Shown here one piece after another: positions 3,814 through 39,869 of a stretch of 63,809 nucleotides of DNA. Position 1 is the stretch's first letter, and the number at the start of each line of letters is the position of its first letter. The DNA comes from a bacterium (lineage in GTDB: Bacteria; Patescibacteriota; Andersenbacteria; UBA10190). The translations under genes were made by a program, and so were the position numbers. The notes beneath the pieces were generated by a model, which searched no databases, had not been told where the DNA came from, and saw only the letters and a list, made by a program, of their open reading frames with translations. The stretch is taken from positions 1-63,809 of the forward strand of contig JAQBWN010000001.1 of NCBI GenBank assembly GCA_027624555.1, given 5' to 3'.

Positions 3814-3900
3814 GCTCAGATGGCGGAATCGGTATACGCGCATCCTTGAGGTGGATGTGGGAGCAATCCCGTGCAGGTTCAAGTCCTGTTCTGAGCACCA
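3814..3900 (+). tRNA. tRNA-Leu(GAG), CCA encoded
   Basis: Cloverleaf: acceptor gctcaga/tctgagc, anticodon stem catcc/ggatg, loop ttGAGgt, long variable arm, A73, cca at 3898-3900. Confidence 0.9.
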
Positions 3901-3972: not shown

Positions 3973-4047
3973 CTAATAAAAGACAATACTTAGTTTGAAT
4001 TATCTGCCCATTCTGCTATGCTCGTATCACAATTGAATAATAAATAT

Positions 4048-4341
4048 GCCGCGGTAGCTCAGTGGTAGAGCGCAGCCCTGGATCTTCGGGGCCCTTCTCA
4101 GTAATGGGGAGTGTATAAACTGGGTGAACTCGGGGAACACTTTATAGGTGAAAGCCTAGAAAACAATCCCGAGCCAAGCTAAGAAGGGTTTAAGTTTCTT
4201 AGAAGGTGTAGAGACTAGCGAGTGAGTCCCAACAATAATCTCGCAGACAGCGCCCAGCTCCTATGCAAATAGGATGATGATATAGTCCAAATTCAGCCTT
4301 GGAAGAGGCTGGCGTCGACAGTTCAATTCTGTCCCGCGGCA
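4048..4341 (+). tRNA. tRNA, most likely Phe(GAA), interrupted by a group I intron after U33
   Basis: 5' exon 4048-4079: gccgcgg-ta-gctc-agtggta-gagc-g-cagcc-ct. 3' exon 4302-4341: GAAga-ggctg-gcgtc-gacag-ttcaatt-ctgtc-ccgcggc-a. The joined exons give a 72-nt cloverleaf with a short variable arm. Confidence 0.8.
4080..4301 (+). ncRNA. Group I intron (222 nt, no ORF) in the tRNA anticodon loop
   Basis: Follows U33 and ends in G4301. P1: exon gcccu (4075-4079) pairs with ggggc (4088-4092), with a U-G wobble at the splice site. R-like agagactag (about 4210-4218) and S-like gatgatatagtcc (4276-4288) form P7 gacta/tagtc. Confidence 0.8.
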
Positions 4342-12990: not shown

Positions 12991-12998
12991 AAATAATG

Positions 12999-13070
12999 TG
13001 GGCCTGGCAGGGATCGAACCTGCGACATGTACCTTATAAGAGTACCGCTCTACCACTGAGCTACAAGCCC
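12999..13070 (-). tRNA. tRNA-Ile(UAU)
   Basis: Reverse complement folds as gggcttg-ta-gctc-agtggta-gagc-g-gtact-ctTATaa-ggtac-atgtc-gcagg-ttcgatc-cctgc-caggccc-a. This is a clean 72-nt cloverleaf with anticodon TAT, A37 and A73. Confidence 0.85.
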
Positions 13071-23521: not shown

Positions 23522-25006
<1,485 letters not shown>

Positions 25007-25198
25007 AGGGAAACTGCCTACATACTATTCGCAAGATTAGAGTGTAGGACCTGGAAGTCGAGGCTTGTACACAATATGCGCAAGTATATTGGGAACGAGT
25101 CACAATTCTTTGAGAATAAGCGGAAAGCACACCTTCCCTTTAACACATGTGGTGTGCGAAAGAGGCAATACTTTACAATCGCGCAAAGCGGCGCAGGA

Positions 25199-25226
25199 AA
25201 ATAACCCCAAATGGGGTTATTTTTGT
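25199..25226 (+). terminator. Rho-independent terminator downstream of 16S
   Basis: aataacccc-aaat-ggggttatt followed by tttg. Confidence 0.7.
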
Positions 25227-25230
25227 TTAT

Positions 25231-25320
25231 GTCATTCCCGCGAATGCGGGAATCCAAGCGATGTGGATGCCCGATCCCAACGTCGCCAAGGCTATGCTGG
25301 GCGCGGCAAGTCGGGCATGA
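25231..25320. repeat. MITE-like repeat (gtcattcccg ... cgggcatga ends)
   Basis: gtcattcccgcgaatgcgggaatccaag... The right half cgtcgccaaggctatgctgggcgcggcaagtcgggcatga parallels 4788-4826. Confidence 0.7.
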
Positions 25321-25380
25321 AAACTCTGCCCATTTTCATTATTTCACGGCTCAATATAGCCTTATTTGTTTTTATGTACC

Positions 25381-25409
25381 TTGACACGATGTAAATATAG
25401 GAGTATGAT
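25381..25409 (+). promoter_or_regulatory. Sigma70-like promoter
   Basis: ttgaca (25381-25386), 17-nt spacer, tatgat (25404-25409). Confidence 0.55.
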
Positions 25410-25460
25410 GTGCGTATTCAGTTACGACCGCTCTTTCATTCTTTTGAGTCACCTGTGTAG

Positions 25461-25820
25461 GTGGTAAAAGAGAAGAAAATTTACAAGGAATTAATCGTGA
25501 ACAAGACAATGAAACAGTATTTTGCTCTCGAGGATTCGTTACTCGCCATCGTGCCAATAGCAGGCGTCGCTGATCCGAGTGGATACTTAGTCACACATCA
25601 TCGATCTTGCATGCTGTGCGACGCTAAAAAAGGGTGGGAAGACACTTTCAGCGACGCTCTTATTGCCCAGGGCGTGGATCTGGAAAGGGTTATCCAACTC
25701 GAATCTACACCCGGCGATCCGATTTTTAAGATGCGAGAAGGAAGGTTGAAGCTGATAAGCCGCTGCGTAAAGCTGGGGGTCATTCTCAGGGCCACGGCGG
25801 AGCTGCTTCCCGAAGATTAG
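25461..25820 (+). CDS. Hypothetical protein in the 16S to tRNA-Ile spacer
   Basis: 119 aa from GTG, or 103 aa from ATG 25509. Flanked by its own promoter and terminator. No recognisable motif. Confidence 0.45.
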   Translation: MVKEKKIYKELIVNKTMKQYFALEDSLLAIVPIAGVADPSGYLVTHHRSCMLCDAKKGWEDTFSDALIAQGVDLERVIQLESTPGDPIFKMREGRLKLISRCVKLGVILRATAELLPED

Positions 25821-25854
25821 GTGATCCAATGTCACACAATCGAAAAACGTCCAC

Positions 25855-25895
25855 AAACCCGATTCACACCAAAAATGTGAATGCGGGTTTTTTCT
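25855..25895 (+). terminator. Rho-independent terminator
   Basis: aacccgattcaca-ccaaaaa-tgtgaatgcgggtt followed by ttttc. Confidence 0.7.
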
Positions 25896-25936
25896 TGCAA
25901 AAAACGTAAATAAAATGTTTACTGTATTCACAGTAC

Positions 25937-26008
25937 GCGCGTGTAGCTCAGTGGTAGAGCACTACACTGATAATGTAGTGGTCGGAAGTTCGATCCTTCC
26001 CACGCGCA
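25937..26008 (+). tRNA. tRNA-Ile(GAU)
   Basis: gcgcgtg-ta-gctc-agtggta-gagc-a-ctaca-ctGATaa-tgtag-tggtc-ggaag-ttcgatc-cttcc-cacgcgc-a. No encoded CCA. Confidence 0.92.
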
Positions 26009-26037
26009 CTAATATAGATTGCTGTTATACTTACATA

Positions 26038-27621
26038 ATGCAACTTCCTCCCGAAGTACAAACGGTTATCGAAAAACTTAATTCCGCTGGTTTTGAGGCG
26101 TATGCCGTCGGCGGATGCGTGAGGGATCTTTTACTAGGCAAAGAACCAAAAGATTGGGATATAACTACTTCTGCAAATCCCGATGAAATACAAAAAGTAT
26201 TTCCGAATTCTTTTTATACGAATAATTTTGGAACGGTAACTGTTCGCACTGGCGCTTCCCGCCAAAGCTCCCACCCCCTCCAACTCCCCCTCGGGCAGGG
26301 GGAGAGAACTGCGACACCTATCTCGGAAATCGAAGTTACGACATACCGCATAGACGCGGGGTATAACGATCAGCGGCATCCGGATTCTGTGACGTTTACG
26401 AAAAGTTTAAAAGAGGATTTGGCGAGACGGGATTTTACGGTGAATAGTATGGCGTTAGCGCCCGGCCCCTCAACACCAGGTGTTGGCGCGTTAACACCTG
26501 GTGTTTTCCCGCCGGGCGCCAGCGACACCGTCGTCATCGACGGCATGACGATCATCGACCCATTTGGCGGATTACAAGATTTACACAACCAATTGATTCG
26601 CGCGGTTGGCACGCCAAGCGAACGGTTTTCTGAAGATGCGCTTCGCTTAATGCGCGCCGTACGATTTTCTGCACAGCTTTCATTTAAGATAGAAGAACAT
26701 ACACTCAAAGCGATTACAGAATATGCGCCATCAATTACTGCCGTATCTCATGAACGCATTTGCGATGAATTAATAAAAATTGTTGAAAGTAAAAATCCCG
26801 AAAACGGAATGAACGTATTGCAACAAACCGGGCTGCTTGCTTTAATACTCCCCGAAGTTCAAGAGGGGGTTGGTGTAGGGCAAAATAAACATCACATTTA
26901 CACTGTCTTCGACCACTGCATTAAATCTTTACAATATGCTGCGCATTTTGAATATCCACTGCATGTTCGCCTGGCTGCACTTTTTCACGATATCGGGAAA
27001 CCCCGCACTAGAAGGCTTGCGCCTTCAGTGCAGGGCAAGGCCCCTGATTATACTTTTTATGGGCATGATATTGTCGGCGCACGCATGACGGAACACCTCA
27101 TGAAACGATTAAAGTTTTCGAGTGAACTGACGAAGCAAGTAAGCCACCTCGTTCGCCAACACATGTTTTATTACGATGTGGATAAAGTCACACCGGCTGG
27201 CGCACGAAGACTACTCCGAAGAGTTGGGAAAGAAAATTTTGGCGATTTAATTAAACTCCGCATTGCCGAACGCAAAGGTTCTGGCGTTCCAAAAGCAGAG
27301 CCGTACAGGCTACGCCATTTGCAGTTCATGGTAGAAAACGCTTCTAAGGAACCAATATCCGTAGGCCAGCTTGCTATCTCGGGCAATGAATTAGTGAACG
27401 ATTTAGGTATGCGTCCAGGACCAATATTCGGCGGAATACTAAATGCATTACTCGCAGAGGTATTAGAAGACCCGAAGAAAAATACAAAAGAATATCTCTT
27501 GCAGCGAGCAAGTGAGATAAAGGATAAAAGCCCAGATGAACTTAAAAAACTTGGAGCAATTGCAATTGAAGAGGAAGAGAAAAAACAGGAAGAAGAGATA
27601 AAACGAAAATATCACGTGTAG
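26038..27621 (+). CDS. cca: CCA-adding enzyme (class II nucleotidyltransferase with HD domain), carrying two in-frame repeat insertions
   Basis: 527 aa from ATG 26038 (MQLPPEVQTVIEKL...). GGCVRD motif, RDFTVNSMA, DALRLMRAVRF, HDIGKP. The track ORF start (25915) lies over tRNA-Ile. Confidence 0.88.
   Translation: MQLPPEVQTVIEKLNSAGFEAYAVGGCVRDLLLGKEPKDWDITTSANPDEIQKVFPNSFYTNNFGTVTVRTGASRQSSHPLQLPLGQGERTATPISEIEVTTYRIDAGYNDQRHPDSVTFTKSLKEDLARRDFTVNSMALAPGPSTPGVGALTPGVFPPGASDTVVIDGMTIIDPFGGLQDLHNQLIRAVGTPSERFSEDALRLMRAVRFSAQLSFKIEEHTLKAITEYAPSITAVSHERICDELIKIVESKNPENGMNVLQQTGLLALILPEVQEGVGVGQNKHHIYTVFDHCIKSLQYAAHFEYPLHVRLAALFHDIGKPRTRRLAPSVQGKAPDYTFYGHDIVGARMTEHLMKRLKFSSELTKQVSHLVRQHMFYYDVDKVTPAGARRLLRRVGKENFGDLIKLRIAERKGSGVPKAEPYRLRHLQFMVENASKEPISVGQLAISGNELVNDLGMRPGPIFGGILNALLAEVLEDPKKNTKEYLLQRASEIKDKSPDELKKLGAIAIEEEEKKQEEEIKRKYHV
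26268..26315. repeat. GC-rich palindromic repeat, family B (short form), in frame inside cca
   Basis: ctcccaccccctccaactccccctcggg-cagggggagagaactgcgac. The first 28 nt are identical to 50515-50542. Translated as ...SSHPLQLPLGQGERTAT... Confidence 0.8.
26458..26519. repeat. GC-rich nested palindrome, in frame inside cca
   Basis: gcgcccggc...aacaccaggtgtt-ggcgcg-ttaacacctggtgtt...gccgggcgc. Translated as APGPSTPGVGALTPGVFPPGA between RDFTVNSMA and IDPFGG. Confidence 0.7.
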
Positions 27622-27670
27622 CGCTTCTCCCCCTTTTCAAGGGGAGGAGAACGTATGTTACAATTTATTC

Positions 27671-27925
27671 ATGTCATTCCTCTTTTTCTTTCTCGGCTCG
27701 CTCATGATGATCGCCGGCTTTATGATGGTTTGGAAAACAGCATGGTGGGAAAATAATTGGGGAGATATCGGTGCCATGGTCGGCATTCACGGATCTGCAC
27801 TTTCTAGTTGGAAAATTGCCGGGGTTATTATGATGTTTATCGGATTCCTCGTTGCGTTCAATATTTTAGGAAGCCTTTTCTACTTATTAGTAGGACAATT
27901 TATCCCCACAGGATTCGGGCAATAA
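27671..27925 (+). CDS. Small membrane protein (84 aa, 3 TM)
   Basis: Hydrophobic ORF with no known motif. Confidence 0.5.
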   Translation: MSFLFFFLGSLMMIAGFMMVWKTAWWENNWGDIGAMVGIHGSALSSWKIAGVIMMFIGFLVAFNILGSLFYLLVGQFIPTGFGQ

Positions 27926-28017
27926 ATTTGCAAAATCATACATAAAAAGGTTAAATAAGATTTGTAGTTCATAGCAACAGAAGGGCGTAGCCCTGAAGTG
28001 TGCTTGTCACTACTTCA

Positions 28018-28090
28018 GGGCCCCTAGCTCATTTGGTAGAGCGCCTCGCTTGCACCGAGGAGGTGATCGGTTCGAATCCGATGGGGTCCA
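28018..28090 (+). tRNA. tRNA-Ala(UGC)
   Basis: gggcccc-ta-gctc-atttggta-gagc-g-cctcg-ctTGCac-cgagg-aggtg-atcgg-ttcgaat-ccgat-ggggtcc-a. G3:U70 identity pair present. Confidence 0.92.
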
Positions 28091-28196
28091 CTTGCTTTTT
28101 ATCGCTATCCTCGCTAGGGTAGCGATACTGTTTACCAGATACGTATCTGGCCTGGATTGGACATTTACTTACAAATATTTTCAAGGGATCGCTCTG

Positions 28197-28880
28197 ATGA
28201 ATGAGAGTCTCAAACTTCAATTGCTTCAGATAGCTCAAAAACGAGATGCCCTACGAATGGATCAGGCAATCTTCACACTGAAATCTGGCCGGCAAAGCCC
28301 ATACTTCTTCAATGCCGGCATGCTTCAAGATGCGGAAGCTTATGAAATTCTTTCAGAAGCATTTGCTTCAGCAATCGAAGACGAATGCCGAAACGGATTG
28401 TCATTTCACACACTCTACGGACCGGCATCCAAAGGAATACCGCTTGCAATGATTGCGGCTACGGGTCTTTACCGACGCAATCGTTCATATCGTTTTCCTT
28501 TTGTGTTCAACCGCAAAGAATCAAAAGACTACGGGGAAAAAAGGGGGTTTCTCGTTGGGGATTCCATTTTAGGCAGGCGAATACTCATAGTGGACGATGT
28601 AATTACCGCAGGCACCGCCGTAGAGGAATCTATTGAGCATATTAAAAGTGCCGGAGGAATCCCTGCGGGTCTCGCAATTATTCTGGATCGACAGGAAAGA
28701 GGCAAAGATACGGCCGACTCTGCGATTCAGGAAGTTCAAAAAAAATATCACATGCCCGCTTTTAGTATTTTGAAGCTCGACGATCTTTTAAAACATTTAG
28801 GAGAAATGAACGTTCCTCCCGAGATCGCGAATGCGATGCAAGAGTACCGCGCTCAGTACGGAGTGACGTACGAGGAATAA
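28197..28880 (+). CDS. pyrE: Orotate phosphoribosyltransferase
   Basis: 227 aa from ATG 28197 (MNESLKLQLL...). FTLKSGRQSPYFFN and the PRPP motif ILIVDDVITAGTA. The track ORF start (28050) lies inside tRNA-Ala. Confidence 0.88.
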   Translation: MNESLKLQLLQIAQKRDALRMDQAIFTLKSGRQSPYFFNAGMLQDAEAYEILSEAFASAIEDECRNGLSFHTLYGPASKGIPLAMIAATGLYRRNRSYRFPFVFNRKESKDYGEKRGFLVGDSILGRRILIVDDVITAGTAVEESIEHIKSAGGIPAGLAIILDRQERGKDTADSAIQEVQKKYHMPAFSILKLDDLLKHLGEMNVPPEIANAMQEYRAQYGVTYEE

Positions 28881-28891
28881 CACAACACGAC

Positions 28892-28928
28892 GAGCCGCAA
28901 TCACTTCAATTGCGGCTCTTTTTCTTTT
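28892..28928 (+). terminator. Rho-independent terminator
   Basis: gagccgcaa-tcacttca-attgcggctc followed by tttttctttt. Confidence 0.8.
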
Positions 28929-28994
28929 GACTTATATCTACCCGAGGAATACGCTAAATATAGTTTTCATCCTTCATACTCGAATCGAAAGGAG

Positions 28995-29714
28995 GTGTCA
29001 CTTATGGCAGAATATAATTCTTTCTTAACAGTTTGGGCAGGTGCAGTAGGAACGTCCTTAACCGACCTTTGGTTTCAATTTGTAAGCATTATTCCTAACG
29101 TCATTGCGGCTCTCGTCGTGTTCTTTATTGGATGGAGTATTGCAATTGGCCTTGGGAAATTAGTTGAAAAACTCATGGTAATGCTTCGCATCAACAGCGC
29201 GTTTGATTCCATAACGGGTCTCAAACGAGCAGTAGAACAAGCAGGGTTAAAGTTGGATATTGCTCATCTTCTTGGGGAAATCTTTAAATGGTTCCTCATT
29301 ATTGTGACGCTCTTAGCATCTACCGACATTTTGGGATTAAACCAAGTATCTCAATTCCTAAACGCGGTACTTGTGTACATTCCAAATGTTATAGTTGCAG
29401 CAATAATACTCGTTATCTCTGTAGTGCTTGCGAACTTCGTGTATCGCACAGTACTCGCGAGTGTTGAAGCAGCAGGCTTTACAAGCGGAGGTGCAATTGC
29501 AGCACTTAGCAAATGGTCAATCTTGGTCTTTGCTATCCTTGCAGCATTGCTCCAATTAAATGTAGCAACTCAACTTCTTCAAACGTTCCTCACTGCATTC
29601 TTCGCAATGGTTGCAATAGCAGGCGGGCTCGCGTTTGGATTAGGAGGTAAAGATCTTGCAGCAAAATGGCTTCAAAAAGCCGAGCATGATCTATCAGGAA
29701 AAAGACATCTATAA
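28995..29714 (+). CDS. Membrane protein with repeated conserved TM-helix modules (MscS-associated TM_helix-like)
   Basis: 239 aa (GTG 28995 or ATG 29004). Four or five TM helices with repeating NVIAALVVFFIGW / NVIVAAIILVISV type segments. Confidence 0.5.
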   Translation: MSLMAEYNSFLTVWAGAVGTSLTDLWFQFVSIIPNVIAALVVFFIGWSIAIGLGKLVEKLMVMLRINSAFDSITGLKRAVEQAGLKLDIAHLLGEIFKWFLIIVTLLASTDILGLNQVSQFLNAVLVYIPNVIVAAIILVISVVLANFVYRTVLASVEAAGFTSGGAIAALSKWSILVFAILAALLQLNVATQLLQTFLTAFFAMVAIAGGLAFGLGGKDLAAKWLQKAEHDLSGKRHL

Positions 29715-29728
29715 GACATGAGAATAAT

Positions 29729-29763
29729 CCTCCTTCGCCCTTACGGGCTTCGGCGGACAAAGC
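29729..29763. repeat. GC-rich repeat, family C
   Basis: cctccttcgcccttacgggcttcggcggacaaagc. Its reverse complement shares gtccgccgaagcccg...gggcgaagg with 35082-35127. Confidence 0.65.
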
Positions 29764-29786
29764 AAAAGCAACTTGTCTACAAAGAT

Positions 29787-29822
29787 AAAAACGACCCCTT
29801 AGCAGTAGGTGGGTCGTTTTTA
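29787..29822 (+). terminator. Rho-independent terminator
   Basis: aaaacgaccc-cttagcagtaggt-gggtcgtttt followed by ta. Confidence 0.65.
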
Positions 29823-29879
29823 TATAGTAACGGTTTATGATATTCTTGAATTACATACTATAATCTCCCTCTAACCAAT

Positions 29880-30470
29880 ATGACCCTAAATCAATACCTA
29901 CGCATAACATCTGTTGCGATGCCTATTTTTGCTGCTGCATACATAGCATTTTACTTTGCATCTAAGCTCCTTAGTGTTCCTGGCCCTCGTCGTGGTGACG
30001 TAATAGGGTACATAATTTCCGATACAGCTATATTTGTTATTCCTTTTGTGCTGGGAGGATTATCACTGCGATTAGCAGCAGGTCTTTCACAATCTAGTTC
30101 TACATTGCAAAATTCCTACCTTAATCCGAAAGTAAGGAAGACTGCTATTCTTACCCTTGCAGCATACACCGCGCTCTCCATTGGACTTGCCACCGTAATA
30201 CCACTAGAGCAGATGGACTGGAAAACCCTATCATATGGCCCTATGGGACCAGCAGCTCCTTTAATTTTTGCAGGTATTTTATTCTTCTGGTTTTTTGGCC
30301 AAATAATCACATTAATCGCATGGAGTATAATCAGGACAAAAATACGGAAGAATGCTCCTGAGGATTCATGGCTAAGACTAAGTTTTATCACACTCAATAT
30401 ATTACACATAGTAGGAATCTTGAGTATTGTTTTTTACTTCATACTCGCGATCGGAGAGGGATTGTTTTAG
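29880..30470 (+). CDS. Hypothetical polytopic membrane protein
   Basis: 196 aa with about 6 hydrophobic spans. No motif recognised. Confidence 0.5.
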   Translation: MTLNQYLRITSVAMPIFAAAYIAFYFASKLLSVPGPRRGDVIGYIISDTAIFVIPFVLGGLSLRLAAGLSQSSSTLQNSYLNPKVRKTAILTLAAYTALSIGLATVIPLEQMDWKTLSYGPMGPAAPLIFAGILFFWFFGQIITLIAWSIIRTKIRKNAPEDSWLRLSFITLNILHIVGILSIVFYFILAIGEGLF

Positions 30471-30554
30471 CCTGATTGGATTACACTGTGTAGGTGGCTC
30501 GTTTTTTGTTAGTGAAGGTTAGCGTCAGAGAATAACAAGTGATACAATTCGGAA

Positions 30555-30935
30555 ATGGATCTACTAATAGCCTTACCCGCCTTAGCGATATTATTACTTA
30601 GTATTTTTGTTGGGCAGCCTTGGAAACGTGGTATTAGCATAGCGTCTTCTTTTGTGTACATCCTAGTTGCAATACTTTTATTTGTGATTCCATCGTTCAT
30701 TCCCATAACCACCTCTAATCCTGGCTATGGTTCTCCTACAGGTCTCGTGAGGACTTTCTATTACGGACTGGCTCTTGTAACCTTTTTTCCACTGTCCGTG
30801 GTTATGTTATGCATTGACCTTCTAGTAAGTAGGCAAAAAATCGTCCTCGGCAATGGCACAAAAATCATTTGTGGCCTTATTTACATTGCCACACTTACTA
30901 TATTTCTTTGGGGATTTAATCTTGCTTTAAAATAG
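30555..30935 (+). CDS. Hypothetical membrane protein
   Basis: 126 aa with about 4 hydrophobic spans. No motif recognised. Confidence 0.45.
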   Translation: MDLLIALPALAILLLSIFVGQPWKRGISIASSFVYILVAILLFVIPSFIPITTSNPGYGSPTGLVRTFYYGLALVTFFPLSVVMLCIDLLVSRQKIVLGNGTKIICGLIYIATLTIFLWGFNLALK

Positions 30936-30948
30936 CCCTAAATACCCC

Positions 30949-30976
30949 TTGACACGCCTACTTATCCCCATATACT
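30949..30976 (+). promoter_or_regulatory. Near-consensus promoter for the 23S-5S unit
   Basis: ttgaca (30949-30954), 16-nt spacer, tatact (30971-30976). Same hexamers as the 16S promoter. Confidence 0.6.
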
Positions 30977-31480
30977 ACTTAATAACTACGAACCGCCTCT
31001 GGCAGTTCCTCTAGACAACAAAATCATCCTAGAGAATAAGGAATTAAAGTGTAAGATTTTTTGTCTGTGGGTTGATTTATATTTCTTATTGTAAGGTTCT
31101 GAACTTTGACAATTTACTATAACGAAAGAAAGAAGATTCTATTGCAAAGAATCAAGAAAATAGATCACGCATGTAGATAGTAATAATGTATTACTAGCTC
31201 ATGCAATGCATATCCAAAAACTGTGACAAATAAAGTGAAATAATCATGTGTCATACACCGTTAAGAGTATATGGTGGATGCCTTGGTAATAGACAACGAT
31301 GAAGGACGTGGCCGGCTGCGATAAGCTACGGGTAGGTGCTGAGCAACCGATGATCCGTAGATTTCCGAATGGGGAAACCCCTTTACCGTAATTGGTATTG
31401 ACTACCTTGCTGCAAGGCAGGGATAGGGATAACCTGGCGAATTGAAACATCTTAGTAGCCAGAGGAAAAGAAACGAACGA

Positions 31481-31577
31481 TTAATTATTATTTTGTAGTT
31501 AGTAGCCAGTAGTGAGTAGTGCGTTTACGCGTCCTACTTACTACGAACTAAAACCTATTTAGTAAGTAATTAGTTAC
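31481..31577 (+). other. AT-rich expansion segment / intervening sequence in 23S domain I
   Basis: Inserted between ...gaaaagaaacgaacga and attcccccagtagtggcgagcgaa, which are contiguous in E. coli 23S. Internal hairpin: gtagtgagtag (31509-31519) with ctacttactac (31534-31544). Confidence 0.75.
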
Positions 31578-31872
31578 ATTCCCCCAGTAGTGGCGAGCGA
31601 AAAGGGAGGAGCCTAAACCATGTATGCGTAATAGCTCATAAGGCGTTGCATATGTGGGGTTGCAAGGTAATGCACTGTAAATTTATGAAAAACAAACGAA
31701 ATGTAAATGTCTGTCTAGAAGAACGCGGCTGGAATGCCCGACCATAGAGGGTGAGAGTCCCGTACACGAAAGATACAATTACTTCGTTCGCATTACCTTA
31801 AGTAGGGCGGGACACGTGAAATCCCGTTTGAATCCGGGAGGACTAAACTCCCAAGGCTAAATATGTCTATTA

Positions 31873-31911
<39 letters not shown>

Positions 31912-33377
31912 CACCCCGTTAAGGGGAATGAAATAGACCTGAAACCATATACTTACAGAGAGTAGGAGCTCCGCATTTATGCGGGGTGACTGCGTGCTTT
32001 TTGCAGAACGAACCATCGAGTTCGCTGTATGCCGTTTGCTTAAGTCTCATTCGAGACGGAGGCGTAGCGAAAGCGAGTATTAATAGTGCGTTTATAATGG
32101 CATGCACGAGACCCGAAACCGGGTGATCTATCCATGAGCAGGGTGAAGTTTTGCGAAAGCAAAATGGAGGCCCGAACCCGTTGGCCGTTCAATACCATGG
32201 GATGACTTGTGGATAGCGGAGAAATTCCAATCGAACCCGGAAATAGCTGGTTCTCGTCGAAATAGCTTTAGGGCTAGCCTCGTGAGTTACCCAAGAGAGG
32301 TAGAGCACTGCAAGGGATTAGAGGGCTTTACGTTCTCAACCCTAGCAAACTCCGAATACTCTTGGCTTTCATCACGGGAGTCAGAACGTGGGGGCTAAGC
32401 TCCACGATCAAAAGGGAAACAGCCCAGATCATAACTTAAGGTCCCAAAATGCTGCCTAAGTGGTTAAGGTGGTGGAGTTGCACAGACAGCGAGGCAGTTG
32501 GCTTAGAAGCAGCCACCTGTTAAAGAAAGCGTAATAGCTCACTCGTTAAGCGATTCTGCGCCGAAAATTCAACGGGGCTCAAGGCAGCTACCGAAAGTAT
32601 GAATGCCCTCGCCTTAAAACGAGGGCGTGGTAGACGAGCGTTTCATTTGCGTCGAAGGTGTACCGTGAGGTCCGCTGGAGCGAATGAAAGTGAGGATGAT
32701 GGTATAAGTAACATGACACATGGTGAGAACCCATGTCACCGTAAATCTAAGGTTTCCTGGGCAATGTCGATCATCCCAGGGTTAGTCGATCCTAAGCTCA
32801 GGCCGAAAGGCGTAGGCGATGGACAGCAGGTTAATATTCCTGCACCGACTATATAGTTCGTATAGCATGACGAATCGTCGCACCTTGTCAGGACATATGA
32901 CTTATTCCTGCGCGGCACATGTAGTTGGACCGCTTTGGTAAATCCGGGTGGTTTCCGCTTCGGCGGGTAACAGTGAAGTGTCTCGGGAGAGCGCGAGCTT
33001 CGGCTCAAACCTCTATAAGGAAAGAAGGTTCCCGGAAAAGTGTAGTACGATTTCCTATATGGCCGATCGTACCGAAAACCAACACAGGTAGATGGATGTA
33101 AGTGCATTAAGGTGATCGGGAGAACCCTCGTTAAGGAACTCGGCAAAACAGCAGCCGTACGTTCGCAATAAGGCTTCCCGTTATGGCTCGCAAGAGTTGT
33201 GACGGGCGCAGCGCAAGATCCCTGGCGACTGTTTACCAAAAACACAGGTTCCTGCTAACTCGTAAGAGGATGTATAGGAGCTGACTCCTGGCCAGTGTCG
33301 GAACGTTAAACCCGCTTGTTAACGCGAGTGGGCCAAGCGCCGATGAACGCCGGCCGTAACTATAACGGTCCTATGGT

Positions 33378-33730
33378 AGAGGAATTTACCCCAATATTAT
33401 ATATTGTGGCTTTTGCTGCCTTAGTAAAACTTAGCTATATGCTGGAAACCCTGAGTATCTCAAGATACTAATTTGTCATTCCGGACTTGATCCGGAATCC
33501 AAGTAGTGAAAATTCTTGAGTGCAGACAATCAGCAGGAAACCATTCTGTAAAAAGAATAGGATCCTCAGAGACTACACGCTAGGCCCTGAACCCCACGTG
33601 GTTTAGGGATGATATAGTCCGACCTGTATGGCGACATACAGAGCTTGCGAGAAATCGTAAGCCACGTAATTGGTAAAAAAGCGAAACTTAACGAAGAAAA
33701 TAATCGAGAGACAATACGTCGTAACATTCG
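33378..33730 (+). ncRNA. Group I intron in 23S rRNA (about E. coli position 1931), no ORF
   Basis: Interrupts ...aacggtcctatggt | agcgaaattccttg.... The 5' exon ends in U and the intron ends in G33730. Canonical R element tcagagactacacg (33566-33579) and S element gatgatatagtcc (33608-33620). P8: ccctgaacc/ggtttaggg. Confidence 0.85.
33472..33503. repeat. MITE-like left-end module nested inside the 23S intron
   Basis: tttgtcattccggacttgatccggaatccaag parallels 5609-5640 (tttgtcatgccggacttgatccggcatccaga). Confidence 0.7.
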
Positions 33731-34283
33731 AGCGAAATTCCTTGGCAGGTAAGTTCTGTCCCGCACGAATGGAGTCACGACTGGGGAACTGTCTCAACGA
33801 GGGACCCGGTGAAATTGCAATGTCGGTAAAGATGCCGCCACCCTGCGGCTAGACGGAAAGACCCCATGAAGCTTCACTGCAACTTGGTATTGGCTCTTCG
33901 AACATAATGCTCAGTATAGGTGGGAGACTATGATGGCTCTGCTTCGGCGGAGTCGGAGTCACAATATGAGATACCACCCTTTATGTTTGACGCGTCTAAC
34001 AGCGTAGTGTGAAACCACTACCTGGACAGTGCCTGGTGGGTAGTTTATCTGGGGCGGATTCCTCATAAATTGTAACTGAGGAGCCTATAAGGTCAGCTAG
34101 ATACGGATGGAAACCGTGTCGATAGTGCAAAGGCATAAGCTGGCTTCACTGCAAGACATACATGTCGCGCAGACACGAAAGTGGAGCTTAGTGAACCGAC
34201 CGTTCTCATATAGAAGAGCGGAAGATCATCGGATAAAAGCTACTCTGGGGATAACAGGCTTATCTCCCCCAATAGTCCACATA

Positions 34284-34318
<35 letters not shown>

Positions 34319-34540
34319 CTATCCTGGGGCTGAAGAAGGTCCCAAGGGTTTGGCTGTTCGCCAATTAAAAGGGTACGCGAGCTGGGTTCAAACCGTCGCA
34401 AGACAGGTTGGACCCTATCTGTCGCAGGCGTGGAAACTTGAGGATCGTCCTTCCTAGTACGAGAGGACCGGAAGGGACCAACCTCTGGTGTACCAGCTGT
34501 TCAGTTCTTGAGCATTGCTGGGTAGCTACGTTGGGCTGGT

Positions 34541-34572
<32 letters not shown>

Positions 34573-34910
34573 CAATCCAAGACCAGGTTTCGTATGAGAC
34601 TCCTAGAAGACTACTAGGTTGATAGGTGGGAGGTGTACGCGCAGCAATGCGTTGAGCCGACCCATACTAATTAGTCCAGTTGTATGAATACGTGTTTATT
34701 TCACTTGACGTGAACTGAAACGGTTCGTACTTCCTCGCAAGATATAAATATTAGAATAAGCAATTAGGTCTAGTAAAAGGGAAGGCAAGTCACAGTGATG
34801 TATACGCAAAGCTGGGCTAGTAATATATTAGTACTATTACATAGCGTGATCATATATCTTGTTCAAGTAATAGAGTTTTCTTTCTTTCGTTTATATTTCT
34901 TCGATCTAAT

Positions 34911-39795: not shown

Positions 39796-39869
39796 GCGGG
39801 TGTCGTATAGTGGTAATACTTCAGATTTCCAATCTGATGATAGGAGTTCGATTCTCCTCACCCGCTCCA
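39796..39869 (+). tRNA. tRNA-Gly(UCC), CCA encoded
   Basis: gcgggtg-tc-gtat-agtggta-atac-t-tcaga-ttTCCaa-tctga-tgat-aggag-ttcgatt-ctcct-cacccgc-t-cca. Confidence 0.9.

Follow-up and report, generated by a model that had tools for sequence, protein, structure and literature searches.

A tRNA-Phe gene of Andersenbacteria appears to be split in its anticodon loop by a group I intron of the Phe.2Ug type

How would a bacterium decode phenylalanine if the usual tRNA finders report no tRNA-Phe gene in its DNA? The question is raised by a stretch of 63,809 nucleotides from an Andersenbacteria genome (contig JAQBWN010000001.1 of GenBank assembly GCA_027624555.1; we call this whole stretch the window), in which the gene for tRNA-Phe escapes both ARAGORN with default settings and the tRNA model of Rfam. 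A first-pass annotation of the window had proposed that two half-tRNAs, separated by an insert that begins right after U33 and closes with G4301, join into a clean 72-nt cloverleaf with the anticodon GAA and the discriminator A73. We predict that this locus is a working tRNA-Phe(GAA) gene of the type found in the Patescibacteria (the candidate phyla radiation, or CPR), and that an IA-like group I intron without an open reading frame (ORF), of the Phe.2Ug type, very probably interrupts it between U33 and G34. If such a gene is overlooked, then the genome would wrongly seem to lack tRNA-Phe, and genes that are missed in this way distort completeness estimates and codon-usage inferences for CPR genomes.

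Both the insert and the cloverleaf are present as proposed. The joined exons (GCCGCGGTAGCTCAGTGGTAGAGCGCAGCCCT followed by GAAGAGGCTGGCGTCGACAGTTCAATTCTGTCCCGCGGCA) have four perfect stems, and ARAGORN calls the 72-nt sequence tRNA-Phe(gaa). The first-pass annotation had recommended an intron-aware tRNA search and a search with the Rfam model for group I introns, and both succeed: in its intron-aware mode, ARAGORN calls the genomic sequence tRNA-Phe(gaa) i(33,222), and the Rfam covariance model (RF00028) matches 4029-4311 with 54.8 bits (E = 3.7e-11), which is above its gathering score of 50. The cloverleaf, the GAA anticodon, and A73 are all as expected for a bacterial tRNA-Phe, and the gene lies in a cluster of the order tRNA-Leu, tRNA-Val, tRNA-Phe, tRNA-Gly.

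The insert also has the architecture of a group I intron (Table 1). The pairing that had been proposed for P7, between the gacta and tagtc halves of an R-like and an S-like element, is present (GACUA at 4213-4217 with UAGUC at 4283-4287) and is consistent with the Rfam consensus; by analogy, we infer that P7 is the guanosine-binding helix. There is a conserved P3-P8 core with a P3/P7 pseudoknot, as in group I introns, and GNRA tetraloops cap P2, P5a, and P8. An unconstrained minimum-energy fold of 4073-4313 recovers P1, P2, P3, P4, P5a, P6a, P7.1, and P8 (z = -2.69), and it also yields a hairpin between the tail of the intron and the 3' exon, which is discussed below.

To find relatives of this intron, we scanned one genome per bacterial or archaeal species for the core motif followed by the terminal guanosine (omega-G), GAARA, and a T-arm, and we obtained at least 119 matching stretches, nearly all of them labelled Patescibacteria. 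These include many Paceibacterota/Parcubacteria as well as Saccharibacteria, Doudna-, Falkow-, Moran-, and Kerfeldbacteria, and Minisyncoccia. According to ARAGORN, almost all of the matches that are not cut by the edge of the locus are tRNA-Phe(GAA) genes with an intron at 33/34. Among the matches listed, there are 107 distinct intron-bearing pre-tRNA-Phe sequences (including the one in the window), and these share the intron site. The family is larger than we counted, since our pattern required GATATAGTC and the seed sequence for the Phe.2Ug type in a catalogue of bacterial tRNA introns carries GAGATAGTC, which falls outside it.

The relatives support the proposed structure. Across 66 aligned members, 91.4% of the cells in the core model (P2-P8, P10, and the tail) are paired, as compared to 78.0% after shuffling (0 of 500 shuffles were as high) and 37-50% if the partners are slid. 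The P5 region aligns poorly, and covariation scoring covered P2, P3, P4, P6a, P7.1, and P8. Compensatory changes were seen in all six tested pairs of P2 and in all seven pairs of P6a (95.3% paired). P3 is 99.8% paired, with changes on both sides in 3 of 7 pairs; P4 is 99.7% paired, with changes on both sides in 4 of 6 pairs; and 3 of the 4 proximal pairs of P8 show double-sided change. P7 is invariant and 100% paired.

We then consider the splice sites. The P1 pairing that the first-pass annotation described is present: GCCCU of the exon (4075-4079) is complementary to GGGGC of the intron (4088-4092), a U•G wobble marks the 5' splice site, and U33 is in a U•G pair in all 107 members. What the annotation overlooked is a contiguous P10: UCUUC (4083-4087) pairs with GAAGA (4302-4306) of the 3' exon. 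Because P10 lies directly beside the P1 guide, it fixes the 3' splice site, and UCUUCGGGGC forms a single continuous guide that aligns both exons end to end. An omega-G (G4301) and a P10 on a guide shared with P1 are as expected for a group I intron.

To score P1 and P10 across the 107 members, we fixed each exon at its splice site and read the columns of the guide off an alignment of the 5' ends of the introns. Position 32 of the tRNA is in a C-G pair in 103 members and U-A in 4; position 31 is in C-G (80), A-U (26), or U-A (1); and position 30 is in G-C (58) or C-G (47). On the other side of the junction, G34 faces C (57) or U (49), A35 and A36 face U in 106 and 105 members, and position 37 is in G-C (78) or A-U (24). 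Overall, 95.2% of the P1 and P10 cells are paired, as compared to 83.9% (and at most 86.5%) in 1000 shuffles of the guide, and compensatory swaps at positions 30, 31, 32, and 37 link the guide to both exons. P10 is 98.5% paired in alignment A1; P1 was left unscored there because some rows of A1 have the 5' exon displaced by one column.

A splice site one base downstream, at 34/35, would give the identical mature tRNA (exon ...CCCUG / intron ...UUGG / AAGAGG, with slashes for splice sites), because the intron and the 3' exon both start with G. The two sites are indistinguishable from the product sequence in the window, and ARAGORN assigns 33 or 34 in different relatives. Nevertheless, we consider 34/35 to be extremely improbable. 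In most relatives the intron starts with A, and there only splicing at 33/34 results in a GAA anticodon; together with the invariant U•G pair at the base preceding the intron, this fixes the site at 33/34. Furthermore, G34 pairs with the last base of UCUUC in P10, contiguous with P1 on the guide.

Independent support for the junction comes from genes that lack the intron. We searched metagenomes for the predicted ligated junction (GTAGAGCGCAGCCCT joined to GAAGAGGCTGGC) and found uninterrupted tRNA-Phe genes in at least 120 metagenome contigs. The best of these are identical to the predicted product at 70 of 72 positions, and the sole difference is one compensatory pair in the T stem. Three loci (L167, L136, and L152) keep the gene order of the window, which is UDG, tRNA-Leu(GAG), tRNA-Val(UAC), tRNA-Phe, tRNA-Gly(GCC), and then tRNA-Cys, and the intron is absent from their tRNA-Phe; L167 additionally has tRNA-Leu(UAA) after tRNA-Cys. 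Because these syntenic uninterrupted genes are nearly identical to the predicted product, the exon junction must be right. And because some orthologous loci have the intron and others do not, it was gained or lost during evolution, whatever the mechanism.

We also note that position 37 is usually A in bacterial tRNA-Phe. It is G (in the loop CUGAAGA; position 4305 of the window) in 81 of the 107 intron-bearing genes, and its P10 partner tracks it, with C opposite G37 and U opposite A37. G37 is common to the intronless alleles as well, but the query that retrieved those alleles fixes G37, so this is not independent evidence.

Could this copy instead be a pseudogene with a decayed intron, while tRNA-Phe is supplied by a gene elsewhere in the genome? 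Just 64 kb of that genome can be seen here, and the Rfam score is barely over the threshold, which would fit with this explanation, but we think that it is very improbable. Of 87 columns with 90% or more conservation among the other family members, the intron in the window agrees with 86, so it looks intact; P1, P10, omega-G, and every core helix are retained. The exons form a perfect cloverleaf that differs at just two positions from uninterrupted genes, and the gene is located in a conserved tRNA cluster. ARAGORN found no second tRNA-Phe in the 64-kb window in either its default or its intron-aware mode, and no second tRNA-Phe was found in roughly 119 related loci, most of which span 8 kb.

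Table 1. Predicted features of the split tRNA-Phe gene and its intron, and the other group I intron of the window
Feature	Positions	Strand	Description	Basis
5' exon	4048..4079	+	32 nt; tRNA-Phe positions 1-33: acceptor 5' strand, D arm, anticodon-stem 5' strand CAGCC, C32, U33	ARAGORN, joined and genomic sequence
P1, 5' strand	4075..4079	+	Exon GCCCU, tRNA positions 29-33; U4079 in U•G wobble at the 5' splice site	
Group I intron	4080..4301	+	222 nt, no ORF; terminal omega-G at 4301	RF00028
Internal guide sequence	4083..4092	+	UCUUCGGGGC; 4088-4092 for P1, 4083-4087 for P10	
P2 hairpin	4094..4111	+	4094-4100 with 4105-4111; GUAA tetraloop 4101-4104	Covariation, fold
P3, 5' strand	4120..4126	+	Partner 4251-4257	Covariation
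P4	4130..4172	+	4130-4135 with 4167-4172; encloses P5/P5a	Covariation
P5/P5a	within 4130..4172	+	4141-4149 with 4154-4162; GAAA tetraloop 4150-4153	P5a in minimum-energy fold
P6 and P6a	4173..4207	+	P6, 4173-4175 with 4205-4207; P6a, 4179-4185 with 4196-4202	P6a covariation
P7, 5' strand (R element)	4211..4217	+	G4211, bulged A4212, GACUA 4213-4217; partner 4283-4288	
P7.1 hairpin	4218..4244	+	4218-4222 with 4240-4244; between P7 and P3'	Stem covaries
P3, 3' strand	4251..4257	+		Covariation
P8 hairpin	4259..4274	+	GCAA tetraloop 4265-4268	Covariation, minimum-energy fold
J8/7 and P7, 3' strand	4275..4288	+	J8/7, 4275-4282; P7 3' strand, 4283-4288	Rfam consensus UgAAGAUAUAGUCu; invariant in family
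Intron 3' tail	4294..4298	+	CAGCC; pairs with 3' exon GGCUG (4307-4311, tRNA positions 39-43)	Family statistics
3' exon	4302..4341	+	40 nt, no encoded CCA; tRNA-Phe positions 34-73: G34 A35 A36 G37 A38, anticodon-stem 3' strand GGCUG, variable loop, T arm, acceptor 3' strand, A73	
23S rRNA group I intron	33383-33641		Within the 23S gene (31251-34689); 71.8 bits	RF00028

The 3' end of the intron has an unexpected feature. Neither the minimum-energy fold nor the family alignment shows a P9 hairpin in the window's intron; in its place, the short tail can pair with the 3' strand of the anticodon stem. This tail-exon helix reaches at least 4 contiguous base pairs in 48 of the 107 members, while shuffles give 13.7 members on average and at most 24. 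Similarly, 81.7% of its cells are paired, as compared to 66.8% if shuffled and 26-47% if the partner is slid. The tail could have arisen as a DNA duplication of the 5' strand of the anticodon stem, but this is unlikely: in 39 of the 48 members the tail differs from that strand and yet it still pairs, mostly via G•U. In 39 of the 59 members that lack the helix, the tail runs to about 30 nt, and where the alignment shows such a tail it contains an ordinary P9 hairpin.

We tentatively suggest that in the short-tailed branch, which includes the intron in the window, the ribozyme gave up its own P9 and uses the tRNA instead. Both halves of the anticodon stem might then, although this is doubtful, be parts of the ribozyme, with the 5' strand in P1 and the 3' strand on the tail (4294-4298 with 4307-4311), and the loop that separates the tail helix from P10 could conceivably present omega-G. 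We did not find the tail-exon helix described in the accessible part of the literature, and we give a less than even chance that it is both functional and previously undescribed.

Another question is which subgroup the intron belongs to. IC3 introns lack P7.1. In the window's intron, P7.1 is formed by an insertion of 31 nt that the Rfam model lacks; it lies between P7 and P3' and has a conserved loop of 17 nt (UGAGUCCCAACAAUAAU, 4223-4239). This insertion and the missing P9 hairpin are structural arguments against IC3. Many relatives carry P7.1-GUA-P7.2 (UCCC-UUCG-GGGA, GUA, and a second hairpin) instead of the single P7.1 hairpin of the window copy, and P7.1 and P7.2 joined by G-U-A, between P7 and P3', are the hallmark of subgroup IA2 (PMC3428280). 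In the accessible part of the catalogue mentioned above, all four classical bacterial tRNA introns are marked IC3, citing the group I intron database (Williams 2020, 10.1101/2020.01.27.920355). The Phe.2Ug family may be IA-like rather than IC3, which would give bacterial tRNA introns a second structural lineage. An IA-like architecture and a tail-exon helix that replaces P9 might be new features, and a guide and tail that seemingly recruit both strands of the anticodon stem may merit a short experimental study. As a side observation, the P7.1 loop is nearly invariant across distant lineages, and the Phe.2Ug seed from 2020 has it as well.

How would the tRNA be made? A group I intron inside tRNA-Phe should splice itself out, and we propose the following pathway, in which the pairings are those shown above and the chemistry is taken from knowledge of group I introns (PMC3984707). 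The gene would be co-transcribed with its cluster neighbors tRNA-Leu, tRNA-Val, and tRNA-Gly. The guide (4083-4092) would draw positions 29-33 (GCCCU) out of the anticodon stem and into P1, with U33•G at the cleavage site, and the tail of the intron (CAGCC, 4294-4298) would hold on to the 3' strand that this leaves unpaired (GGCUG, 4307-4311). An external guanosine, bound at P7, would attack after U4079. The omega-G (4301) would next occupy the guanosine site while P10 (UCUUC with GAAGA) aligns the 3' exon, and ligation of the exons would give CU/GAAGA. Finally, the anticodon stem would re-form and an enzyme would add CCA, because the gene does not encode it; the window does contain a gene for a CCA-adding enzyme (at about 25915-27621).

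A genuine group I intron might nonetheless fold into its active form only with the help of a host protein (such as a tRNA-binding factor or a chaperone) or of the folded tRNA body. In favor of this are the missing P9 hairpin, the small size of the peripheral elements, the need for P1 and the tail helix to open up the anticodon stem, and the fact that many group I introns require protein help (reviewed in PMC3984707). On the other hand, the GNRA tetraloops on P2, P5a, and P8 and the conserved P7.1 are the usual means by which an RNA stabilizes itself. It is also established that the small bacterial tRNA introns studied so far (Anabaena and Azoarcus) self-splice in vitro, and we consider a dependence on such help to be rather unlikely.

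Genomes of this kind usually carry one tRNA-Phe gene, and the window shows no other, so splicing is probably needed for all decoding of phenylalanine codons. All phenylalanine decoding in such a cell would probably hang on an RNA-catalysed, guanosine-dependent reaction. Complete CPR genomes have tRNAs for all amino acids, some of them with group I introns that hinder their detection (Lui et al. 2021, PMC8172020).

Several points weigh against our interpretation. The RF00028 score exceeds the threshold by just 4.8 bits, and the model places P1 and P2 wrongly, on the body of the tRNA. P7 does not have support from covariation, because it is invariant. The assignment to subgroup IA is based on the position of P7.1/P7.2 and not on a subgroup-specific model. 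That this is the sole tRNA-Phe gene and that it is essential are extrapolations from 64 kb of the genome. A weaker reading of the distribution would make the intron an old marker of the Patescibacteria that has mostly been inherited vertically, like the tRNA-Leu intron of cyanobacteria. A Mantel test for co-divergence of introns and tRNAs gave r = 0.049, which is not significant, and the tRNA bodies carry little signal for such a test.

Within our data, the lineage of the window is suggested by its synteny with an Andersenbacteria metagenome-assembled genome and by the labels of the intron's relatives; there was no close genomic relative of the window among the genome loci that we fetched (16S identity was about 75%). 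The introns of the family are 195-336 nt long, which is too short for an endonuclease gene, and no homing endonuclease is encoded in the window's intron, which has no ORF within its 222 nt. Some bins that are labelled as "uncultured Gammaproteobacteria" or Nitrospirota also match the scan (L011, L013, L050, L060, L078, L082, L088, L095, L114, and L093). Where checked, these have the CPR-type tRNA-Phe intron within CPR-like tRNA clusters, and they are probably mislabelled or mis-binned. Two further matches, L034 (Paenibacillus) and L035 (Chitinophagales), have no split tRNA according to ARAGORN; these could have matched by chance, or they may be group I introns from a different context.

We also considered whether the intron came from a phage. 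The Phe-specific pattern has no matches in viral contigs, and blastn against phage genomes gave five weak partial matches, all to Alteromonas phages, so we rejected a phage origin. An unannotated stretch in Alteromonas phages vB_AmaP_AD45-P1 to P4 (at about 42.4-43.1 kb; H1-H5) is 71% identical to positions 28-139 of the intron (4107-4218 of the window), and this stretch may itself be an unannotated group I intron.

The 23S rRNA gene of the window contains another group I intron (Table 1). The first-pass annotation had pointed to a 13-mer that the two introns share, at 4276-4288 within its S-like element. The sharing is real: GATGATATAGTCC is found at 4276, at 33608, and nowhere else in the window, and shuffled sequences average 0.06 matches. 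As a sign of kinship it fails, as it is a generic motif of J8/7 and P7 (consensus UgAAGAUAUAGUCu) that belongs to the consensus of the Rfam group I model. Both introns match RF00028, but that of the 23S gene lacks the P7.1 insertion, carries a long extension of P5, and forms a P9 hairpin of its own, so we rejected a close relationship. Even without this intron, the 23S gene exceeds the 2925 positions of its model by about 250 nt, and it may contain further insertions.

We made some further observations on the rRNA and tRNA genes of the window. The 16S and 23S genes are 6.2 kb apart, and the interval (25005-31250) contains tRNA-Ile(GAU) at 25937, tRNA-Ala(UGC) at 28018, the CCA-adding-enzyme-like ORF (about 25915-27621; PolyA_pol, HD, and tRNA_NucTran2_2 domains), a phosphoribosyltransferase, an ORF with the transmembrane-helix domain of mechanosensitive channels, and two ORFs without a Pfam match. 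On the minus strand, at 12998-13070, is a tRNA-Ile with anticodon UAU, which is a rare bacterial route to AUA without lysidine (17 genomes are listed in the tRNAscan-SE 2.0 paper). Two pairs of tRNA genes abut with no spacer: tRNA-Leu(GAG) and tRNA-Val(UAC) at 3900/3901, and tRNA-Gly(UCC) and tRNA-Pro(UGG) at 39869/39870. Just 3 of the 14 tRNA genes in the window encode CCA.

Finally, we compare the intron to known systems. The first-pass annotation thought that tRNA-Phe was an unusual host and 33/34 an unusual site, and neither idea holds up. The four classical types of bacterial tRNA group I introns (Leu.3Ug, Arg.5Ug, fMet.2Ug, and Ile2.5Ug) were extended to 21 in a preprint that, in its accessible part, comprises a catalogue and a covariance model, uses "2" to denote an intron after U33, and includes Mba55.Phe.2Ug in its seed alignment (Williams 2020, 10.1101/2020.01.27.920355). 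This seed is identical to the intron in the window at 182 of 222 aligned bases (82%), and our scan found at least 119 matching stretches. As far as the accessible catalogue goes, the two have in common the tRNA-Phe host, the 33/34 site, U-1, omega-G, the guide motif (GCCCU / ..UCUUYGGGGC), and the P7.1 loop UGAGUCCCAACAAUAAU. We see no difference in kind: judging from the host, the site, U-1, omega-G, and homology to the seed, the intron in the window is predicted to be another member of the Phe.2Ug type, from a different metagenome. The gain for the field is therefore small, as Phe.2Ug has been in the catalogue since 2020 and public genomes contain many examples. The accessible passages of the preprint give no subgroup for the 17 new types, mention no tail-exon helix, and show no splicing (10.1101/2020.01.27.920355).

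The classical cyanobacterial tRNA-fMet intron (fMet.2Ug) sits at 33/34 as well, with U33 at -1 in the notation of the catalogue's accessible part, and its distribution is similarly sporadic, with presences and absences. A group I intron in cyanobacterial tRNA-fMet was reportedly described by Biniszkiewicz, Cesnaviciene and Shub in 1994. It differs in its host and in being marked IC3 in that same part of the catalogue, while the intron in the window has P7.1. Some tRNA-fMet introns carry a homing endonuclease, to judge from the reference list of PMC3984707, and the Phe intron has no ORF.

The tRNA-Leu(UAA) intron of Anabaena/Nostoc and plastids (Leu.3Ug) is likewise small and ORF-less, lies in the anticodon loop, is widespread within one phylum, and has a guide that pairs with both exons, but its site is 34/35 and its subgroup is IC3. 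Zaug, McEvoy and Cech are said to have found in 1993 that splicing in Anabaena requires exons that stay paired in the anticodon stem. For the intron in the window we predict the opposite, with the 5' strand of the stem going to P1 and the 3' strand to the intron tail. The introns in Azoarcus tRNA-Ile(CAU) (Ile2.5Ug) and Agrobacterium tRNA-Arg(CCU) (Arg.5Ug) are also about 200 nt long, with peripheral GNRA tetraloops and bacterial tRNA hosts; they differ in their site (36/37), in being IC3, in having a true P9 hairpin, and in lacking P7.1. The IA2 introns of phages (for example in the DNA polymerase of Pf-WMP3 and in Twort) share the extra hairpin or hairpins between P7 and P3'. Their hosts are phage protein genes, however, whereas the intron in the window is ORF-less, lies in a tRNA, and has a single P7.1 with a long loop.

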